Source: Acidobacteriota bacterium
Lineage (GTDB): Bacteria > Acidobacteriota > Aminicenantia > Aminicenantales > Saccharicenantaceae
Length of the DNA stretch: 64,000 bases
NCBI GenBank assembly: GCA_028749205.1
Contig: JAQULR010000004.1
Location: forward strand, 41,742-105,741
Direction of reading: 5' to 3'
The position numbers and the translations under genes were made by a program. Below, piece after piece: positions 21,980-27,735 of this stretch. Under the pieces are notes generated by a model that was not told where the DNA came from, did no database searches, and saw only the letters and a program-made list of their open reading frames with translations. Every line of letters starts with the position of its first letter. Position 1 is the first letter of the stretch.

Positions 21980-22891
21980 TTATTTATATTTATTTTCTAG
22001 TCGGTCTTGCGGCAGATATTTCTCTTCGAGCTTGCGGTAATCTTTGAGTCCTACGAAGGTGGTATACTCTTCAAAAGTAGTAATCCAGTGGGTTTCGCCA
22101 GGCAAAATTCCTGAGGCTGAATTTTTCAGGGCGGTGAAAAATTCGGTCAAAGCCTTGTGCATAACCATAATCGAAGCAACTGGAATGGAGACTCGGCCTA
22201 CTCCCATTTTAGCCAGTTCTGTTACAGGTATAAGTTCGGTTTTAACTCCGGTAACACCATCCATCAGATTGACCGACAAAGGCCCTTTAATTTCCTTTAC
22301 AGCTCTTTCAATATCAATCTTGCTTTTGATACCATCAATAAAAACCAGGTCAGCTCCGGCCTCGAGGTACAGATTACAGCGCCGAATTGCCTCCTCCAGG
22401 CCGGCCACAGCGAAAACATCTGTTCGAGCATTAATTATAAAATCAGGGTCCAGTCTGTTCCTGATCTCAGCACAAGCTTTAATCTTGCCCACCATCTCTT
22501 CGGCCGGAATAACTTCCTTGCCGGCCATATGGCCGCAGCGCTTGGGGAAAACCTGGTCTTCTATGTTCATTCCGGCTGCTCCAATGGTAATAACTCTTTC
22601 AGTCACCCAGGCAGCATTGATGGCATTTCCTCCTCCGGTATCCACATCGGCCATTACCGGAATGTTGACCGCCTGAACTATATTCCAGGTCAAATCCAGA
22701 ATATCTTTCATCTGAACCAGGCCGACATCGGGCTTGGCCAGAAAAGAGCCGGCCAGCCCGAAGCCTGAAACCTGAATGGCCTCAAACCCGCAATTTTCAA
22801 TAATTTTAGCGCTCAGGGCATCATGACAACCTGGAGCTACCAGAGCCCGGCGTTCCATTATAGCTTTTCTCAGGATAGTGGTTTTTTTCAT
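21980..22891 (-). CDS. Isocitrate lyase / PEP mutase superfamily lyase (methylisocitrate lyase / 2,3-dimethylmalate lyase-like)
   Basis: It has the FPKRCGH motif that is characteristic of the lyase branch. PEP mutases have EDK..K.NS instead. TIM-barrel length. AAGGAG RBS. Confidence 0.75.
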   Translation of the reverse strand: MKKTTILRKAIMERRALVAPGCHDALSAKIIENCGFEAIQVSGFGLAGSFLAKPDVGLVQMKDILDLTWNIVQAVNIPVMADVDTGGGNAINAAWVTERVITIGAAGMNIEDQVFPKRCGHMAGKEVIPAEEMVGKIKACAEIRNRLDPDFIINARTDVFAVAGLEEAIRRCNLYLEAGADLVFIDGIKSKIDIERAVKEIKGPLSVNLMDGVTGVKTELIPVTELAKMGVGRVSIPVASIMVMHKALTEFFTALKNSASGILPGETHWITTFEEYTTFVGLKDYRKLEEKYLPQDRLENKYK

Positions 22892-22949
22892 ATATTTCTC
22901 CTTTGCTTGGCTAAATTTTAGCTTAATATTTAAAATTCAATAAACCTAA

Positions 22950-23001
22950 TCTGACCAGCCAAATAAATGATTCTGACCAGCCTGGTTGTTTTCGACCAGC
23001 T
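22950..23001. promoter_or_regulatory. Three phased direct repeats TC(T)GACCAGC(C/T) upstream of the lyase-dehydratase operon
   Basis: TCTGACCAGCC occurs at 22950 and at 22972, and TCGACCAGCT at 22992. Starts are spaced 22 and 20 bp apart. The repeats lie 59-110 nt upstream of the lyase start codon. The second repeat is part of the palindrome ACCAGcCTGGT. Confidence 0.3.
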
Positions 23002-23110
23002 ATAAACTGCTCTCCTCCAGTCTTTTTAAGCCTGATAGGAAACTTCCCGGGGCTTTCTTTTCTACCAGGACATTTCCTAAAAAGATTTATTATAGACAGC
23101 CTTTCTTATT

Positions 23111-23842
23111 TTACAAGATATTCCTGATGTCCAGCCTTTTAAGCCGATTATAATAGAGCATAATTTTTATGGCTTCTCTGACTTCCCGGCTGGAAATTTT
23201 GGACTGGCCCTTTTCCCGGTTGACAAATTTTATTGGAACTTCTTCAATAACCGCGCCGGTTTTCTGGATAAAATACAGGATTTCCAGATTAGCCGCATAG
23301 CCTCGGGCTTTAAGTCTGTCCAGAGGAACTTTCTCCAAACACTCCGCCCGATAGGCTCTGAAAGCGCCGGTGGTATCCTTGGCTTTAAGCCCCATCAGCA
23401 ACCTACTTAAAAAGTTAGCGGCCCAGCTATTAATCTTTCTTAAGATCGTCCAGCCTTCTGTTTTTCCACCCTCAACATATCTGGAACCAATTACCAACCC
23501 GGCTCTCTGAAGCCGTCTGATCATTTCCGGGATGGCCGACGGCGGATGAGAAAAATCAGCATCCATGGTCAGAAGTCGGGTAAAACCCCTTTTGAGCCCC
23601 CACTTAAAACCAGCCCGATGAGCTGTCCCCAGACCCAGTTTACCAGCACGGTGAAGTACTGAGACCAGCTCGGGGTTTTCTTGGCTGAGACGATCAGCTA
23701 TCTGGCCAGTCCCGTCTGGAGAATTATCGTCAACTATTAGCACCTTAAAATCCAGACTCAGAGCCATTATTTCCCTGACTAGACTCTCTAAGTTGTCGGC
23801 TTCATTATAGGTTGGGACAATAACCAGGTTTCTTTCTCTCAT
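23111..23842 (-). CDS. GT2 polyprenol-phosphate mannosyltransferase (DPM1-like)
   Basis: VIVPTYNE, DDNSPDGT and DADFSH motifs. Confidence 0.8.
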   Translation of the reverse strand: MRERNLVIVPTYNEADNLESLVREIMALSLDFKVLIVDDNSPDGTGQIADRLSQENPELVSVLHRAGKLGLGTAHRAGFKWGLKRGFTRLLTMDADFSHPPSAIPEMIRRLQRAGLVIGSRYVEGGKTEGWTILRKINSWAANFLSRLLMGLKAKDTTGAFRAYRAECLEKVPLDRLKARGYAANLEILYFIQKTGAVIEEVPIKFVNREKGQSKISSREVREAIKIMLYYNRLKRLDIRNIL

Positions 23843-23954
23843 GGGTCTATTTTATCAAATCTCCCACAACCCCGGCACCAGGCTTTTTTTAATTAAGATC
23901 TTGGGTTATACTTGGTTTTTAATTTAAGGCTATTTTTACCCGTTGGAGGAAACT

Positions 23955-24548
23955 ATGTCAGAAAATCGTTCCGAGTTGATACTCAAAATGTTTGAGGAAA
24001 GTAAGGCTTTACTCCAGGGTCATTTCAAGCTAACCTCTGGTAAACACTCCGAATACTACTTTGAAAAAATCAGGCTTATAGAAAGGCCGGTTCTCTTGGA
24101 AAAAATTATTGACCTGCTGGTCGAAGAAATTAAAAAAGATGCTCCCGAATTTGATTATGTGGTTTCGCCTGCCTATGGGGGCATTGCCATCGGTTTTCTG
24201 GCCGCCTTAAAGCTTAAAAAATTTTTCGCCTTTACCCAAAGGGTTGAAGAAAAAATGACTGTCCGCTCCGGTTTCTCCGGCCTCACCAATTCCAAGGCGA
24301 TTATTGTGGAAGATGTCTTGACTACCGGGGGCTCAGTCCGAGAGGTCTTAGAATGTCTGAAGCAGAAAGAGGTGACTGTAGCTAAAATCTATTGCTTGGT
24401 GGACAGAAGCGGGGGTCAGGTTCTTATAGAAGGCAATCCAGTAAGAAGCTTACTATCATTAAAGGTTGAAGCTTTTGAGCCTGAGTTCTGCCCTCTCTGC
24501 CAGCAAGGCCGGCCCCTGGTCAAGCCAGGAGCTTCAGACAGAAAATGA
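23955..24548 (+). CDS. pyrE: Orotate phosphoribosyltransferase
   Basis: PRPP-binding motif IIVEDVLTTGGS. I moved the start to ATG 23955, which follows a GGAGGA RBS. The track start at 23943 is a TTG. Confidence 0.85.
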   Translation: MSENRSELILKMFEESKALLQGHFKLTSGKHSEYYFEKIRLIERPVLLEKIIDLLVEEIKKDAPEFDYVVSPAYGGIAIGFLAALKLKKFFAFTQRVEEKMTVRSGFSGLTNSKAIIVEDVLTTGGSVREVLECLKQKEVTVAKIYCLVDRSGGQVLIEGNPVRSLLSLKVEAFEPEFCPLCQQGRPLVKPGASDRK

Positions 24549-26473
24549 AGGTAATTCTGGCTTCTGAGTCTCCCCGGAGAACCAAACTACTTAAAAAGAT
24601 TTTTAAGCGTTTTTCAGTTATCCCCAGCGGCCTGGACGAAAATCAATTTCCAAAAGAAGACCCGGTTAACTATGCCTTAAAAGTAGCTGAAACCAAGGCT
24701 CGAGAAGTGGCCGAAAGAAATCCTGAAGCTCTGGTAATTGCTGCTGATACGGTGGTTGCTGTAGATGGATTGATTCTCGGAAAGCCCAAAGACAGAGACC
24801 AGGCCAAAAAAATGCTCCAGAGCCTCTCGGGTAAAACTCATCAGGTGATTACGGCCGTGGCCGTCTGCCAAAAGCAGGAAGAAAAAGTTAAAATCCTCAG
24901 TGATTGTGAAACCAGCCTGGTTACCTTCAAGCCTTTAACCGAAAAGGAGATGGACTCTTATTTAGACCAAAGCACCTACCAGGACAAAGCTGGGGCTTAT
25001 GCCGTTCAGGAAATCAAATCTTCATTTTTAGAAAAGCTTGAGGGCGACTATTATAACGTAGTTGGTCTGCCGATTAGACGGCTGCGCCAGGTGCTGTCCA
25101 GTTTTTTAGAAAGAAAAACTGAAGTTGAGATTACCGATTTCCTATTTCCAGAGGGTTTGGGCTTGGGCCAGAGTCAGAATCACACCTTTCAGGTACCCGG
25201 GACTTATCCCGGCGACCTGGTAGAAATATCTTACCAGCTTTCTGAGAAGCAGCCCCTTCGAGCCAAGGTTTTTTCTATAATCAATCCTTCCCCCCTGCGA
25301 GAACCGCCGGTTTGCCCTCATTTCGGTCAGTGTGGCGGCTGCAGTTTTCAGGATTTAAGGTACTCTGAACAGCTTCGTCAAAAAGGTCAGTATTTACTCC
25401 AGGTTATTGAGGAATATTTTCCTTCAGAGTCCCGTTACCTGGAAATTGATGATGTTGGGCCTTCTCCTTCCCGTTTTTTCTATCGTAATAAAATGGAATT
25501 CTCTTTCGGTCAATCAGGAAACGAACTTTACCTCGGCTTAAAGCAAAAGACCAAGGCCTCTTTTAGCCGCCAGGATAAAACCATCGTCCGTCTGGACGAA
25601 TGTCATCTCTGCACTCCTTTAGCAGAAAAAATATTTTCTTTTTTCCCTGAGCTTTGCAGAAAGACTAAACTTCGAGCTTTTGACTTAAAAACCAAGCAGG
25701 GCTTTTTCCGCCATCTGGTCATAAGAGAAGGTAAAAAAACCGGGGATCTGATGCTCCTCCTGGTTACTACCAGCCAGGCTGAGCTCGAGACCAGAAGCTT
25801 TACAGATCAACTGCTTCAAGCCCTGCCTGAGCTTAAGAGCTTCTGGTGGGTGGAGAACAACCGCCTGGCCGATGTGGTCTCTTTCGAGAAGTCTCACCAC
25901 CTATACGGCCAAGAAGCCATTGAAGAAGAACTGCTTGACCTTCGTTTCAAAATCTATCCAGCCTCTTTTTTCCAGACCAATCCCTTAGCCGCCGAACTCG
26001 TTTACCACAAAATTGTTGAAGAAGCCAGAAGACTAAGAACCCAGTCAGCTCTCGGCCTTTACTGTGGCTCGGGAGCCATAGAGATCTGTCTATCAAAAAT
26101 CGCTGCTGAGGTAGTCGGGGTTGACTGGGATAAAGCCAATATCAAGACGGCCAATGAAAATGCCAAAATTAACAACCTCAGGAATGTTAGCTTTTGGGAA
26201 AACCGAGTGGAGGAAGTCTTGCCTGAAATCTATCGGGGCAGTTATGATCTGTTGATTGTTGACCCGCCTCGAGCTGGAATTAGCCCTAAGGGAATTAAAC
26301 AAATAATTTCCCTTAAAATTCCTAATATTATCTACGTGTCCTGTAACCCTAAATCTCTGGCCAGAGACCTTAAAATTCTAACTGACAGCGGCTACCAGAT
26401 TAGCCGACTGACTCCAGTAGACTTCTTTCCCCATACTGCCCATCTCGAAGTAGTAGCCTTTTTGTGCCGTTAG
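24545..26473 (+). CDS. Fusion protein: N-terminal Maf nucleotide pyrophosphatase and C-terminal RlmD/RumA-type 23S rRNA (uracil-5)-methyltransferase
   Basis: About aa 1-190 carry Maf motifs: LASESPRR, DTVV, GKP, DKAGAYAVQE, NVVGLP. From about aa 200 onward there is a TRAM-like segment, the Fe-S motif CPHFGQCGGCSFQDL, the SAM MTase motif DPPRAG and the catalytic VSCNP. ATGA overlap with pyrE. Confidence 0.85.
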   Translation: MKVILASESPRRTKLLKKIFKRFSVIPSGLDENQFPKEDPVNYALKVAETKAREVAERNPEALVIAADTVVAVDGLILGKPKDRDQAKKMLQSLSGKTHQVITAVAVCQKQEEKVKILSDCETSLVTFKPLTEKEMDSYLDQSTYQDKAGAYAVQEIKSSFLEKLEGDYYNVVGLPIRRLRQVLSSFLERKTEVEITDFLFPEGLGLGQSQNHTFQVPGTYPGDLVEISYQLSEKQPLRAKVFSIINPSPLREPPVCPHFGQCGGCSFQDLRYSEQLRQKGQYLLQVIEEYFPSESRYLEIDDVGPSPSRFFYRNKMEFSFGQSGNELYLGLKQKTKASFSRQDKTIVRLDECHLCTPLAEKIFSFFPELCRKTKLRAFDLKTKQGFFRHLVIREGKKTGDLMLLLVTTSQAELETRSFTDQLLQALPELKSFWWVENNRLADVVSFEKSHHLYGQEAIEEELLDLRFKIYPASFFQTNPLAAELVYHKIVEEARRLRTQSALGLYCGSGAIEICLSKIAAEVVGVDWDKANIKTANENAKINNLRNVSFWENRVEEVLPEIYRGSYDLLIVDPPRAGISPKGIKQIISLKIPNIIYVSCNPKSLARDLKILTDSGYQISRLTPVDFFPHTAHLEVVAFLCR

Positions 26474-26556
26474 ACTTACCGCCTCCGGAAGATATAATCT
26501 GAGCAGGCAAAAGATTAGCTTTTCAGCCTGTTTTCTTTTAAAATTATCTCAGCCTT

Positions 26557-27735
26557 ATGATAAAAGCCATTCCAGAAGATTTTGTAGTCGAGGAAATTGC
26601 CGAGCTTCCTCTGACCAAAACAGGAGAGTTCCGAGTCTATCAGCTAACCAAAAAAAATTGGACTACCCCAGATTTAAGGCGCTTCCTGGCTAAGTTGCTG
26701 TCCATCTCTCCCAAGGCGATAGCCTATGGCGGGAAAAAGGATAAGCATGGCCTGACCACCCAATACATCACCATTCGCCATCAGCGCGATTTCACTCTGG
26801 AAGAAAAGAATTTTTCTCTTCGCTCGATAGGTTTTATGCGAAAGTCAATGAGTCCGGCCCTTATCCAGGGAAATAAATTCTGCATTACCATCCGCAATCT
26901 TAAAGAGGTAGAATCCGTTTTAGCTAATCTGGAAGAGGTTAAGGTCTATGGTTTTCCTAATTTTTTTGATGACCAGCGTTTCCGGGGGACTGACCTTAGC
27001 CTGGGTTTTTTTGCTGACCGGGTCCTGCGTGGTCATTATAATGGGGCCCTCCAGATCTTCCTTCAGTCCCAGAATATCAATCGGGCCGATAAAAAGGCCC
27101 GGGAAAGAGTGGCCGAGATTATCGCCAGCTGGCGAGATTGGGAAAAATGCTTAGAGCTGGCTCAAGGCCTGACCGAGAAGAGAATCTTTCACACCTTACT
27201 TCTCAGGCCGGATGATTTCTTAGGAGCCCTGGAAAAAATTCCCAGAGAAGAAATCTCGATGGCTTATGCGGCTTTTGGCTCACATCTGTGGAATGAGCTG
27301 CTGCGCAAACTTTTGACAGAAAAAATAGCCGGGCTCAAAGAGTACCAGGCTGAATCAGGAAGTTTCTATTTCTGGAAAAGTCTTGAAGAACCAGTTTTTG
27401 ATTATTTAAAGAATCTCAAATTACCCACCCCGGCCGCTAAGATGCATTTTCCCGATGAGCTTTCCAGAAATCTCTACCTGAGAGTCCTTGAAGAAAATAA
27501 TCTTACCTTCAGTTCATTCCGAACCAGAGCCTTGAGCCGGGTTTTTTTCAGGTCTTTCCAGAGGAAAGTCCTGATATATCCAGAAAACCTGGAAATAGTT
27601 GACAAGCGGGCTGACGAGCTCCACTCGAAGAAAAAGGCTTTAGTATTGTCTTTTACCTTGCCACGGGGAGCTTTTGCTACTATGCTAATAAAAAGAATTC
27701 TTCTTCCGGAAGAACCACAGGCCATTAAAGCCTGA
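26557..27735 (+). CDS. truD: tRNA pseudouridine(13) synthase TruD
   Basis: TruD-type motifs are present (KDKHG, FPNFFDDQRFR) and the length is typical. Confidence 0.8.
   Translation: MIKAIPEDFVVEEIAELPLTKTGEFRVYQLTKKNWTTPDLRRFLAKLLSISPKAIAYGGKKDKHGLTTQYITIRHQRDFTLEEKNFSLRSIGFMRKSMSPALIQGNKFCITIRNLKEVESVLANLEEVKVYGFPNFFDDQRFRGTDLSLGFFADRVLRGHYNGALQIFLQSQNINRADKKARERVAEIIASWRDWEKCLELAQGLTEKRIFHTLLLRPDDFLGALEKIPREEISMAYAAFGSHLWNELLRKLLTEKIAGLKEYQAESGSFYFWKSLEEPVFDYLKNLKLPTPAAKMHFPDELSRNLYLRVLEENNLTFSSFRTRALSRVFFRSFQRKVLIYPENLEIVDKRADELHSKKKALVLSFTLPRGAFATMLIKRILLPEEPQAIKA

Follow-up and report, generated by a model that had tools for sequence, protein, structure and literature searches.

A YhdE-type Maf domain fused to a predicted RNA 5-methyluridine methyltransferase in Acidobacteriota, with an opposite-order counterpart in Chloroflexota

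The window analysed here, a stretch of 64,000 nucleotides, contains on its forward strand a gene (nt 24545–26473) for a protein of 642 amino acids which, according to the list of open reading frames, Pfam, NCBIfam and an AF2 model, is laid out as a Maf domain, a TRAM segment, a central Fe-S domain and a SAM-dependent U5 methyltransferase. The model of the entire protein has a pLDDT of 89.7 and a pTM of 0.79. Upstream on the same strand lies pyrE, for orotate phosphoribosyltransferase (nt 23943–24548; TIGR01367, 158.7 bits against 150.25), which probably begins with the ATG at 23955, giving 197 amino acids as in its relatives, rather than with the TTG at 23943. The two genes overlap by 4 bp as ATGA, the start codon of the fusion occupying nt 24545–24547 and the TGA of pyrE nt 24546–24548, and the same overlap recurs at five related loci (L088, L089 and L093–L095). 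Downstream, a gap of 84 bp is followed by truD (nt 26557–27735, forward strand; Pfam TruD, 196.9 bits), of the tRNA pseudouridine-13 synthase family, and then by ispD. In the gap upstream of truD the best match of the region, from a consensus scan only, is a sigma-70-like candidate promoter (TAGACT-16-TATAAT, 10/12; nt 26471–26498, forward strand), and truD is probably a transcription unit separate from the fusion.

The Maf half (residues 1–188; nt 24545–25108, forward strand) was delimited from Pfam, PDB matches, alignment and Foldseek. Pfam Maf (PF02545) covers residues 2–186 and profile positions 1–186 of 187 (E = 3.6e-60; 203.3 bits, cut-off 27), TIGR00172 (maf) scores 174.9 bits (cut-off 117.15), and PDB entries 1ex2, 4p0e and 2p5x are matched. 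The motifs LASESPRR, DTVV and DKAGAYAVQE are found at residues 5–12, 68–71 and 147–156. The general Maf signature S-R-E-K-D-K, which in YhdE numbering is S10, R13, E33, K52, D70 and K82 (PMC3899018), is present in full as S9, R12, E32, K51, D68 and K80. The subfamilies differ in a second motif, R-T-Q in YhdE as against W-Q-E in YceF (PMC3899018). The fusion has R-T-Q (R11, T69, Q155), and its Maf half scores 123–129 bits to YhdE and BSU28050 but 76 bits to the true YceF 4jhc, so that membership of the YceF (m7GTP) subfamily is ruled out. To judge from sequence, this half is a whole Maf domain of the YhdE type, lacking none of the catalytic and base-specificity residues. Because fold, signature and R-T-Q motif match YhdE, the expected substrates of this half are dTTP, UTP, CTP, m5UTP, m5CTP and pseudo-UTP. 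It is the only Maf in the source genome.

In the AF2 model the last Maf helix (residues 177–188) passes at once, without a linker, into a TRAM-like five-stranded beta-barrel (residues 190–247; nt 25112–25285), recognised by DSSP and by superposition on RlmCD and RumA; the Pfam TRAM model does not match the fusion protein at E ≤ 0.01, whereas orthologues do match it. The central domain (nt 25286–25966) carries predicted [4Fe-4S] ligands, assigned from alignment A1 and RumA-family structures: C257, C263 and C266 (nt 25313–25342, motif CPHFGQCGGC, residues 257–266) and C353 (nt 25601–25603), all four of them invariant in A1. The Rossmann-fold catalytic domain (nt 25967–26470) was placed by Pfam, NCBIfam and the invariant columns of A1, which include Q477, a SAM-binding GxGxG (residues 506–510), the DPPR (573–576) of DPPRAG (573–578; nt 26261–26278), the nucleophile C600 in VSCNP (598–602; nt 26336–26350) and the general base E635 (nt 26447–26449). 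All these features lie on the forward strand. Pfam tRNA_U5-meth_tr (PF05958) matches residues 273–641, and TIGR00479 (rumA) matches residues 203–635 over model positions 4–432 of 432, scoring 300 bits (cut-off 183.55). The methyltransferase part superposes on RlmCD, TRAM included, with a TMt of 0.91 over 459 columns, and on RumA with a TMt of 0.87. Profile matches and modelled fold alike identify the C-terminal 450 residues as a complete RumA/RlmD-type, SAM-dependent RNA uridine-C5 methyltransferase of the [4Fe-4S] type, with TRAM, central and catalytic domains. Open reading frame, Pfam, NCBIfam and motifs thus bear out the original prediction of a single 642-residue frame joining a complete Maf to a complete RlmD/RumA-type enzyme; its TRAM segment is confirmed by the modelled barrel and the RlmCD superposition, and its preference for YhdE over YceF by R-T-Q and the bit scores.

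The same prediction had named rRNA as the methylation target, and this was overstated. The methyltransferase half passes neither the RlmD-specific equivalog NF009639 (205 bits, cut-off 458) nor those for RlmC (TIGR02085, 141.7 against 429.5) and TrmA (TIGR02143, 84.1 against 334.65), and in sequence it is about equidistant from a tRNA-U54 enzyme, a U747 enzyme, the dual U747/U1939 enzyme RlmCD and the U1939 enzyme RumA. Its best solved relative by sequence is the archaeal tRNA-U54 enzyme, and its best fold match is RlmCD. The source genome has no second U5 methyltransferase, and TrmFO was found in none of 41 genomes of the family.

A fusion of this kind might arise from two separate genes joined by an assembly error or a frameshift, and nothing was found that speaks for this. 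An uninterrupted frame of about 640 amino acids is shared by the genomes of 37 species and, when proteins are clustered at 90% identity, by more than 110 clusters, and the modelled Maf/TRAM junction is a structured helix-to-strand transition of high pLDDT. Conservation of the frame in so many independent assemblies makes a frameshift at the junction untenable, and the chance of an artefact is negligible.

Every genome sampled from the genus (10 of 10) and from the family (27 of 27) has the two halves in one frame, at 42–68% identity. The Maf-first order extends beyond the family to three sister families and, sporadically, to other phyla, and the reverse order is found in Chloroflexota. Class-wide the fusion occurs in 37 of 151 genomes, in a sample of the phylum in only 2 of 201, and among 1.84 billion representatives the Maf-first form makes up about 9–12 clusters at 50% identity. 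In 31 fusions of 40–87% identity the invariant residues comprise S9, R11, R12, E32, K51, D68, T69, K80, Q155, C257, C263, C266, C353, DPPR, C600 and E635. Purifying selection, as read from these alignments, acts on both halves as a single polypeptide, throughout the family and beyond. The same residues bear on the suggestion that the Maf domain has lost its hydrolytic function and now helps the methyltransferase to bind nucleotides or RNA, or to dimerise. Maf does dimerise through its C-terminal region (PMC3899018), which here abuts the TRAM barrel directly in the AF2 model. Yet none of the aligned Maf-first fusions departs from the six signature residues, which include the Asp of catalysis and the Glu that binds metal, or from the three specificity residues, and 119 reverse fusions hardly do so. 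An active enzyme would be expected to show just this, and such an accessory role is very improbable.

The immediate neighbourhood is far less well conserved. The original prediction had placed the fusion in a uridine cluster with pyrE and truD; the ATGA overlap and the position of truD as the next gene stand, but the arrangement is confined to a single genus, and even there the congeners have a bacterioferritin gene, bfr, encoded on the other strand and separating truD from the fusion. Among 17 other genomes of the family and order, pyrE was found within ±4 kb of the fusion in none and truD near it in one. A conserved pyrE-fusion-truD "uridine operon" was accordingly rejected, and with synteny limited to one genus TruD and PyrE contribute little to the argument. 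An all-against-all comparison of open reading frames in 26 neighbourhoods revealed no other conserved operon partner beyond one sub-lineage; a single orthologous ferritin-like partner was considered and discarded, the recurring neighbours belonging to three different ferritin-superfamily subfamilies. Also discarded was the idea that the fusion provides a substitute thymidylate route: of 151 genomes of the class, 141 have ThyX, 9 of 9 congeners among them, so the failure to find either ThyA or ThyX in genome G000 reflects genome incompleteness.

The reverse architecture, TRAM-methyltransferase-Maf, is common in Chloroflexota (P0136, P0207, P0249 and more than 110 others). Chloroflexota, and a single genome of Clostridia, also have the two as adjacent genes, rumA followed by maf; the search for related loci from the family alignment, which used Maf-only motifs, returned such pairs besides a majority of stand-alone Mafs. 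The Mafs of the 119 reverse fusions and of 4 adjacent pairs are all YhdE-type with intact catalytic residues. The YhdE type is the common Maf in most bacteria, and its presence in every fusion discriminates weakly. The methyltransferase half of the window's protein scores a median of 163 bits against the Chloroflexota reverse fusions and 275 bits against stand-alone enzymes, and a single origin of both fusion orders is rejected by the methyltransferase tree and an AU test (p = 2.8e-5). On this phylogenetic evidence, the pairing of Maf with an m5U writer arose independently, in opposite order, in Chloroflexota. The Maf-first fusions themselves are not monophyletic in the methyltransferase tree (AU p = 2.5e-4), for which several fusions, or fissions, or long-branch effects could each account.

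One alternative is general co-regulation, in which two neighbouring housekeeping genes, both needed constitutively, became fused by chance and have persisted because the fusion is harmless, with no connection to m5UTP. It agrees with the lack of a conserved operon partner and with the fact that across the phylum and class the Maf and RumA-type genes are mostly unlinked, so that linkage is evidently not required; fused and unfused forms are moreover interleaved within the Chloroflexota clade, as if fusion and fission were easy. It accounts poorly for the fact that the same two families were linked on no fewer than two independent occasions, once in each order, with a separate adjacency in Clostridia, and for the retention of so rare a Maf-first fusion across a divergence of 42–68% with its active-site residues intact. 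We consider it unlikely. Independent linkage in both orders, always to a YhdE-type Maf, makes the Rosetta-stone argument put forward in the original prediction stronger, the opposite-order fusions, the adjacent genes and the independent origins all adding to it.

Among the substrates of YhdE-type Mafs, m5UTP has the lowest KM and the highest kcat/KM, and a recycling model has been proposed; dTTP, UTP, CTP, m5CTP and pseudo-UTP are hydrolysed with similar efficiency (PMC3899018). In Arabidopsis, m5U from RNA turnover re-enters RNA and impairs growth (PMC10415118). A 2025 preprint describes the fate of modified ribonucleotides as largely unknown and makes no mention of Maf (PMC12259108). The reading we favour, and hold to be probable, is that the fusion is a bifunctional enzyme, predicted from sequence and fold to combine an m5U writer with an m5UTP-hydrolysing Maf. 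The methyltransferase would place m5U in stable RNA, at U1939 and/or U747 of 23S rRNA and, since it is the sole m5U writer of the genome, possibly also at U54 of tRNA. Decay of that RNA would free m5UMP for kinases to convert to m5UTP, a nucleotide that RNA polymerase could build into transcripts at random and that the Maf domain would cleave to m5UMP and PPi. Fusion would ensure an obligatory 1:1 co-expression of writer and sanitiser. Substrate channelling would not be expected, because RNA decay and re-phosphorylation separate the two reactions. Counting against the m5UTP reading, YhdE-type Mafs also take canonical and other modified NTPs with similar efficiency, and in E. coli the changes observed in vivo concerned dTTP and UTP only (PMC3899018).

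It might instead be supposed that Maf acts mainly on dTTP and UTP, restraining cell division and growth as has been proposed for it, the fusion coupling nucleotide pools to ribosome or tRNA maturation and translation capacity. A cell-division phenotype of Maf is documented, and overexpression of YhdE in E. coli raised only dTMP and UMP in vivo, the changes being limited to dTTP and UTP and the modified NTPs lying under the detection limit (PMC3899018); within the genus, moreover, pyrE and hence UMP synthesis is translationally coupled to the fusion. That coupling is, however, confined to the genus, and a role in canonical pools leaves unexplained why the partner in both independent events is an m5U writer and not another ribosome-biogenesis enzyme. 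We regard it as distinctly improbable.

It is tempting to go beyond the bifunctional enzyme itself and to propose that a "writer-sanitiser" module of YhdE-type Maf and an m5U writer has recurred, in which Maf specifically bars the triphosphate of ribothymidine recycled from tRNA and rRNA from new transcripts, and that in this family all m5U of both rRNA and tRNA may be made by the fused enzyme alone, that is, by a bacterial RumA-type tRNA-U54 methylase with a pool cleaner attached, in a lineage without TrmA or TrmFO. This wider proposal is tentative, and we rate its chances as a little short of even. The role of Maf in vivo has so far been inferred from substrate profiles in vitro, and two independent fusions together with gene adjacency offer comparative-genomic evidence towards m5UTP as a physiological substrate. 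These links lead to a genetic prediction: where a strain lacks Maf, any m5U wrongly built into RNA should require the m5U writers. The result also flags a bacterial family with a single m5U enzyme.

Both halves have known counterparts. The Maf half shares its fold with E. coli YhdE and B. subtilis Maf (BSU28050), with a TMt of 0.86–0.90 (0.90 for YhdE in Foldseek) at 38–40% identity, but those are stand-alone proteins of about 190 amino acids, whereas here the C-terminal Maf helix runs straight into the TRAM barrel. With E. coli RumA (RlmD), RlmCD of S. pneumoniae and B. subtilis, and P. abyssi PAB0719 (tRNA m5U54), the fusion has in common the COG2265 layout of TRAM, [4Fe-4S] and Rossmann domains together with the residues of the RumA family, namely four cysteines for the cluster, a Cys as nucleophile, a Glu as base and DPPR; it differs from them in its additional N-terminal Maf domain. 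The Chloroflexota fusions unite the same two families, both catalytically intact by sequence and the Maf again YhdE-type, but in opposite domain order, with a shorter methyltransferase from a distinct RumA-family subclade and an independent origin.

Fusion of Maf to a methyltransferase is not new in principle: Tchigvintsev et al. in 2013 read the ASMTL Maf-methyltransferase fusions, and a Maf and a methyltransferase gene paired in an archaeon, as an indication that the two functions are related (PMC3899018). A literature search on Maf with RlmD, RumA, TrmA or 5-methyluridine found no paper on the present fusion, and the reverse TRAM-methyltransferase-Maf architecture of Chloroflexota is new. 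The general layout is common to human ASMTL and other eukaryotic Maf-methyltransferase fusions, and the Maf half scores 108 bits to the Maf of ASMTL (2p5x). The partner in ASMTL is an ASMT-like domain, described as a predicted methyltransferase (PMC3899018). The present protein is not of the ASMTL type, its C-terminal half being a U5 RNA methyltransferase (PF05958) and not an ASMT-like domain. The ASMT-like domain of ASMTL has no known substrate. Here, in contrast, the partner is a predicted writer of m5U in RNA whose recycled product is the best known substrate of Maf, so that the functional logic of the fusion can be read directly.

The open reading frame at 24545..26473 (+) encodes, without interruption, a protein of 642 aa in which a Maf domain and a RumA/RlmD-type m5U methyltransferase are joined as originally predicted, and all the motifs quoted in that prediction are present. 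Pfam recognises a full Maf domain (residues 2-186, E 3.6e-60; TIGR00172, 174.9 bits against a cut-off of 117.15) and the tRNA_U5-meth_tr family at 273-641, and the NCBIfam RumA/RlmD equivalog TIGR00479 spans residues 203-635 with 300 bits (cut-off 183.55). When 31 fusions of 40-87% identity are aligned, the six Maf signature residues S9, R12, E32, K51, D68 and K80 prove invariant, as do R11, T69 and Q155, which define the YhdE subfamily according to the motifs of Tchigvintsev et al. (PMC3899018); the four [4Fe-4S] cysteines C257, C263, C266 and C353; and the DPPR motif, nucleophile C600 and base E635 of the methyltransferase. This invariance contradicts a purely accessory, non-catalytic role for the Maf half, which we regard as very improbable. 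Its expected YhdE type is borne out both by the defining residues and by comparison with solved structures, the scores being 129 bits for Bacillus subtilis Maf, 123 for YhdE, 108 for the Maf domain of ASMTL and only 76 for true YceF. (The molecule name of PDB 4p0u_A, 'Maf-like protein YceF', is misleading for such sorting: sequence and entry title identify it as YhdE E33A.) The AlphaFold2 model of the protein is confident (pLDDT 89.7, pTM 0.79), and in it the final Maf helix (177-188) passes straight into a five-strand barrel (190-247), so that the two halves are predicted to have no linker between them. Foldseek superposed the C-terminal 450 residues, TRAM included, on whole-chain RlmCD (TMt 0.91) and RumA (0.87), and the N-terminal part on YhdE (TMt 0.90); among solved structures it found none spanning both halves. 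The polypeptide contains two complete and conserved modules, each predicted to be catalytic.

A search of 5.8 billion proteins, clustered at 90% identity, found both domains together in ~640-aa proteins from more than 110 clusters, at identities down to 40% and from many independent assemblies (NCBI, JGI, ENA and Logan); databases already hold and automatically name such proteins, some under the JGI name 'RumA/MAF protein'. Among 151 species genomes of the class, a full-length fused frame without stops is present in 37; every sampled genome of the genus (ten) and of the family (27) has it, as do parts of three sister families, and it is absent from the remainder of the order and class. The survey of domain architectures and phyletic spread thus bears out the predicted fusion. 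Since the frame is kept in so many independent assemblies and genomes, the question of its reality is settled, and an artefact can be given practically no credence. The forward architecture, Maf-TRAM-MTase, is rare overall, being found in only two of 201 genomes sampled evenly across the phylum, and colinearly in only about nine full-length and three partial sequences in a set of 1.84 billion representatives of 50%-identity clusters; yet it is stably inherited across 42-68% sequence divergence.

The same two families are linked in other phyla. A genome scan and ORF listings disclosed loci where a rumA-like gene is followed on the same strand by a separate, adjacent maf gene, in Clostridia (L007, 5386-7499), Dehalococcoidia (L012, 3171-5077; L019, 5782-7826) and Anaerolineaceae (L042, 5800-7712, with a 4-bp overlap). 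The reverse architecture, TRAM-U5-MTase-Maf, was recovered by a search of representatives and confirmed with Pfam in the proteins P0136, P0207 and P0249. With P0136 as query, the 120 top matches are two-domain proteins of 583-697 aa and 36-48% identity, barring P0136 itself, the 76%-identical P0268 and two MTase-only entries of ~400 aa; the sources of the reverse fusions are named Chloroflexi or Dehalococcoidia, and many lie on megabase contigs. In 201 evenly drawn Chloroflexota genomes, a continuous reverse fusion was present in at least five, adjacent genes in at least five, and maf and MTase genes within ~5 kb of each other in three, the two being far apart in most others. Without exception, the Mafs of the 119 reverse fusions and of the four adjacent pairs are YhdE-type with catalytic Asp and Lys intact (in the reverse fusions R in 118/119, T or S in 119/119 and Q in 119/119), which discriminates weakly because this is the usual type among bacterial Mafs.

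The MTase half of the window's protein has a median score of 275 bits with many stand-alone RumA-type enzymes, against 163 with the MTase halves of reverse fusions. A maximum-likelihood tree of 62 MTase domains groups the reverse fusions with the Chloroflexota pairs in a single clade (SH-aLRT 100), in which unfused pairs are nested among fused proteins, so that fusion and fission seem to have occurred repeatedly; the forward fusions fall elsewhere, intermixed with stand-alone enzymes in a clade supported at 99, and the Clostridia pair is separate from both. A topology that unites all linked forms in one clade is rejected by the AU test (p = 2.8e-5), as is one in which the forward fusions are monophyletic (p = 2.5e-4), long branches being a caveat. 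The linkage is therefore recurrent and independent, and adjacent pairs, reverse fusions and independent origins together support the proposed Rosetta-stone link between Maf and an m5U writer. That co-expressed housekeeping genes have simply become fused neutrally is a reading to which we would still allow a minor but appreciable share of probability.

The original prediction also set the gene within a uridine cluster. In the window, the TGA of pyrE (24546-24548; TIGR01367 above cut-off) does overlap the fusion ATG (24545-24547), and truD is indeed the next gene, after an 84-bp gap, with ispD beyond it. This order, with the 4-bp pyrE overlap, is common to congeners only. In congeners an opposite-strand bacterioferritin gene lies between fusion and truD (L088, L089, L093-L095) where the window has only the gap (26474-26556), so this gene has been lost in the window's lineage; the region's best promoter-like match, from a consensus scan only, sits in the same gap. 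Of 17 other family or order genomes, none has pyrE within ±4 kb of the fusion and only one has truD near it (L097, ~3 kb upstream; likewise in L090); neither lies beside it on more distant fusion-bearing contigs, and an all-against-all comparison of flanking ORFs revealed no partner kept across lineages. The cluster is local, genus-level synteny, and the case for a functional link gains little from it. Five of seven neighbourhoods examined, spread across deep divergence, have a ferritin-superfamily gene next to the fusion or close by (L088, 6049-6519 (-); L089, 6021-6488 (-); L091, 3392-3886 (-); L092, 3335-3817 (-); L086, 2616-3194 (+)). Congeners have bacterioferritin; two distant lineages have an EncB/MbfA-like ferritin-like protein, encoded upstream in divergent orientation; another has rubrerythrin, encoded 2.4 kb upstream. 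These products belong to different subfamilies (21-23% identity), and their presence could reflect a link to oxidative stress or the MTase Fe-S cluster, or chance in anaerobes. Upstream of pyrE, at 21980-23842 (-), genes for a GT2 glycosyltransferase and a member of the PEP-mutase/isocitrate-lyase family, syntenic in L089, L094 and L095, are unrelated to the fusion.

The supposition that the MTase acts on rRNA fared less well. Its nearest solved relative by sequence is the Pyrococcus abyssi tRNA-U54 methyltransferase (183 bits), followed by an archaeal U747 enzyme (176), RlmCD (159) and RumA (153), and the protein falls far below cut-off in the stricter equivalog models for RlmD, RlmC and TrmA. 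In the window's own genome the fusion is both the sole Maf and the sole genuine U5 methyltransferase, and TrmFO was found neither there nor in any of 41 sampled family genomes (controls were detected correctly), so that the fused enzyme is the only candidate m5U writer in the genus, and its target may be rRNA or tRNA U54. The assembly also has no TrmA-type paralogue. Absences from it are unreliable in general, as it is 92% complete and in 101 contigs. Neither ThyA nor ThyX is detectable in it, which reflects this incompleteness; an unusual thymidylate route was rejected, since 141 of the 151 class genomes have ThyX, all nine congeners among them. A weak ThyA-like match occurs in many family members and in none of the sampled congeners. 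In most class genomes ThyX appears as two Thy1-domain matches within one open frame of ~500 aa (for example G267:C13:165290-165910 and G241:C19:206807-207427, outside the window), which looks like a tandem-duplicated, double-domain form; three other families of the class have the usual single-domain form of ~250 aa.

YhdE-type Mafs hydrolyse dTTP, UTP, CTP, m5UTP, m5CTP and pseudo-UTP, with the lowest KM and highest kcat/KM consistently for m5UTP, and in the model proposed by Tchigvintsev et al. the modified NMPs freed as RNA decays become phosphorylated again and Maf blocks their re-incorporation, modified nucleotides being below detection in Escherichia coli (PMC3899018). When 5-methyluridine degradation is blocked in Arabidopsis, m5U appears in mRNA and growth is reduced (PMC10415118). 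The fusion would enforce co-expression of an m5U writer with the enzyme removing the recycled triphosphate of its product, and we consider it reasonably probable that such house-cleaning is what the fused Maf does; with RNA decay and kinases standing between the two reactions, no substrate channelling is to be expected. That Maf acts on canonical dTTP and UTP, restraining growth in a way coupled to translation capacity, seems unlikely. The fusion provides solid comparative-genomic support, of moderate interest, for a house-cleaning role of Maf.

Full-text literature searches found no paper naming Maf together with RlmD, RumA or TrmA, or discussing such a fusion. Maf-methyltransferase fusions are in principle already known, as in the eukaryotic ASMTL noted by Tchigvintsev et al. 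(PMC3899018); the present case differs in that the partner is, by family, a bona fide RNA m5U writer, which makes explicit the logic joining the two halves, and in that the pairing is recurrent in bacteria.
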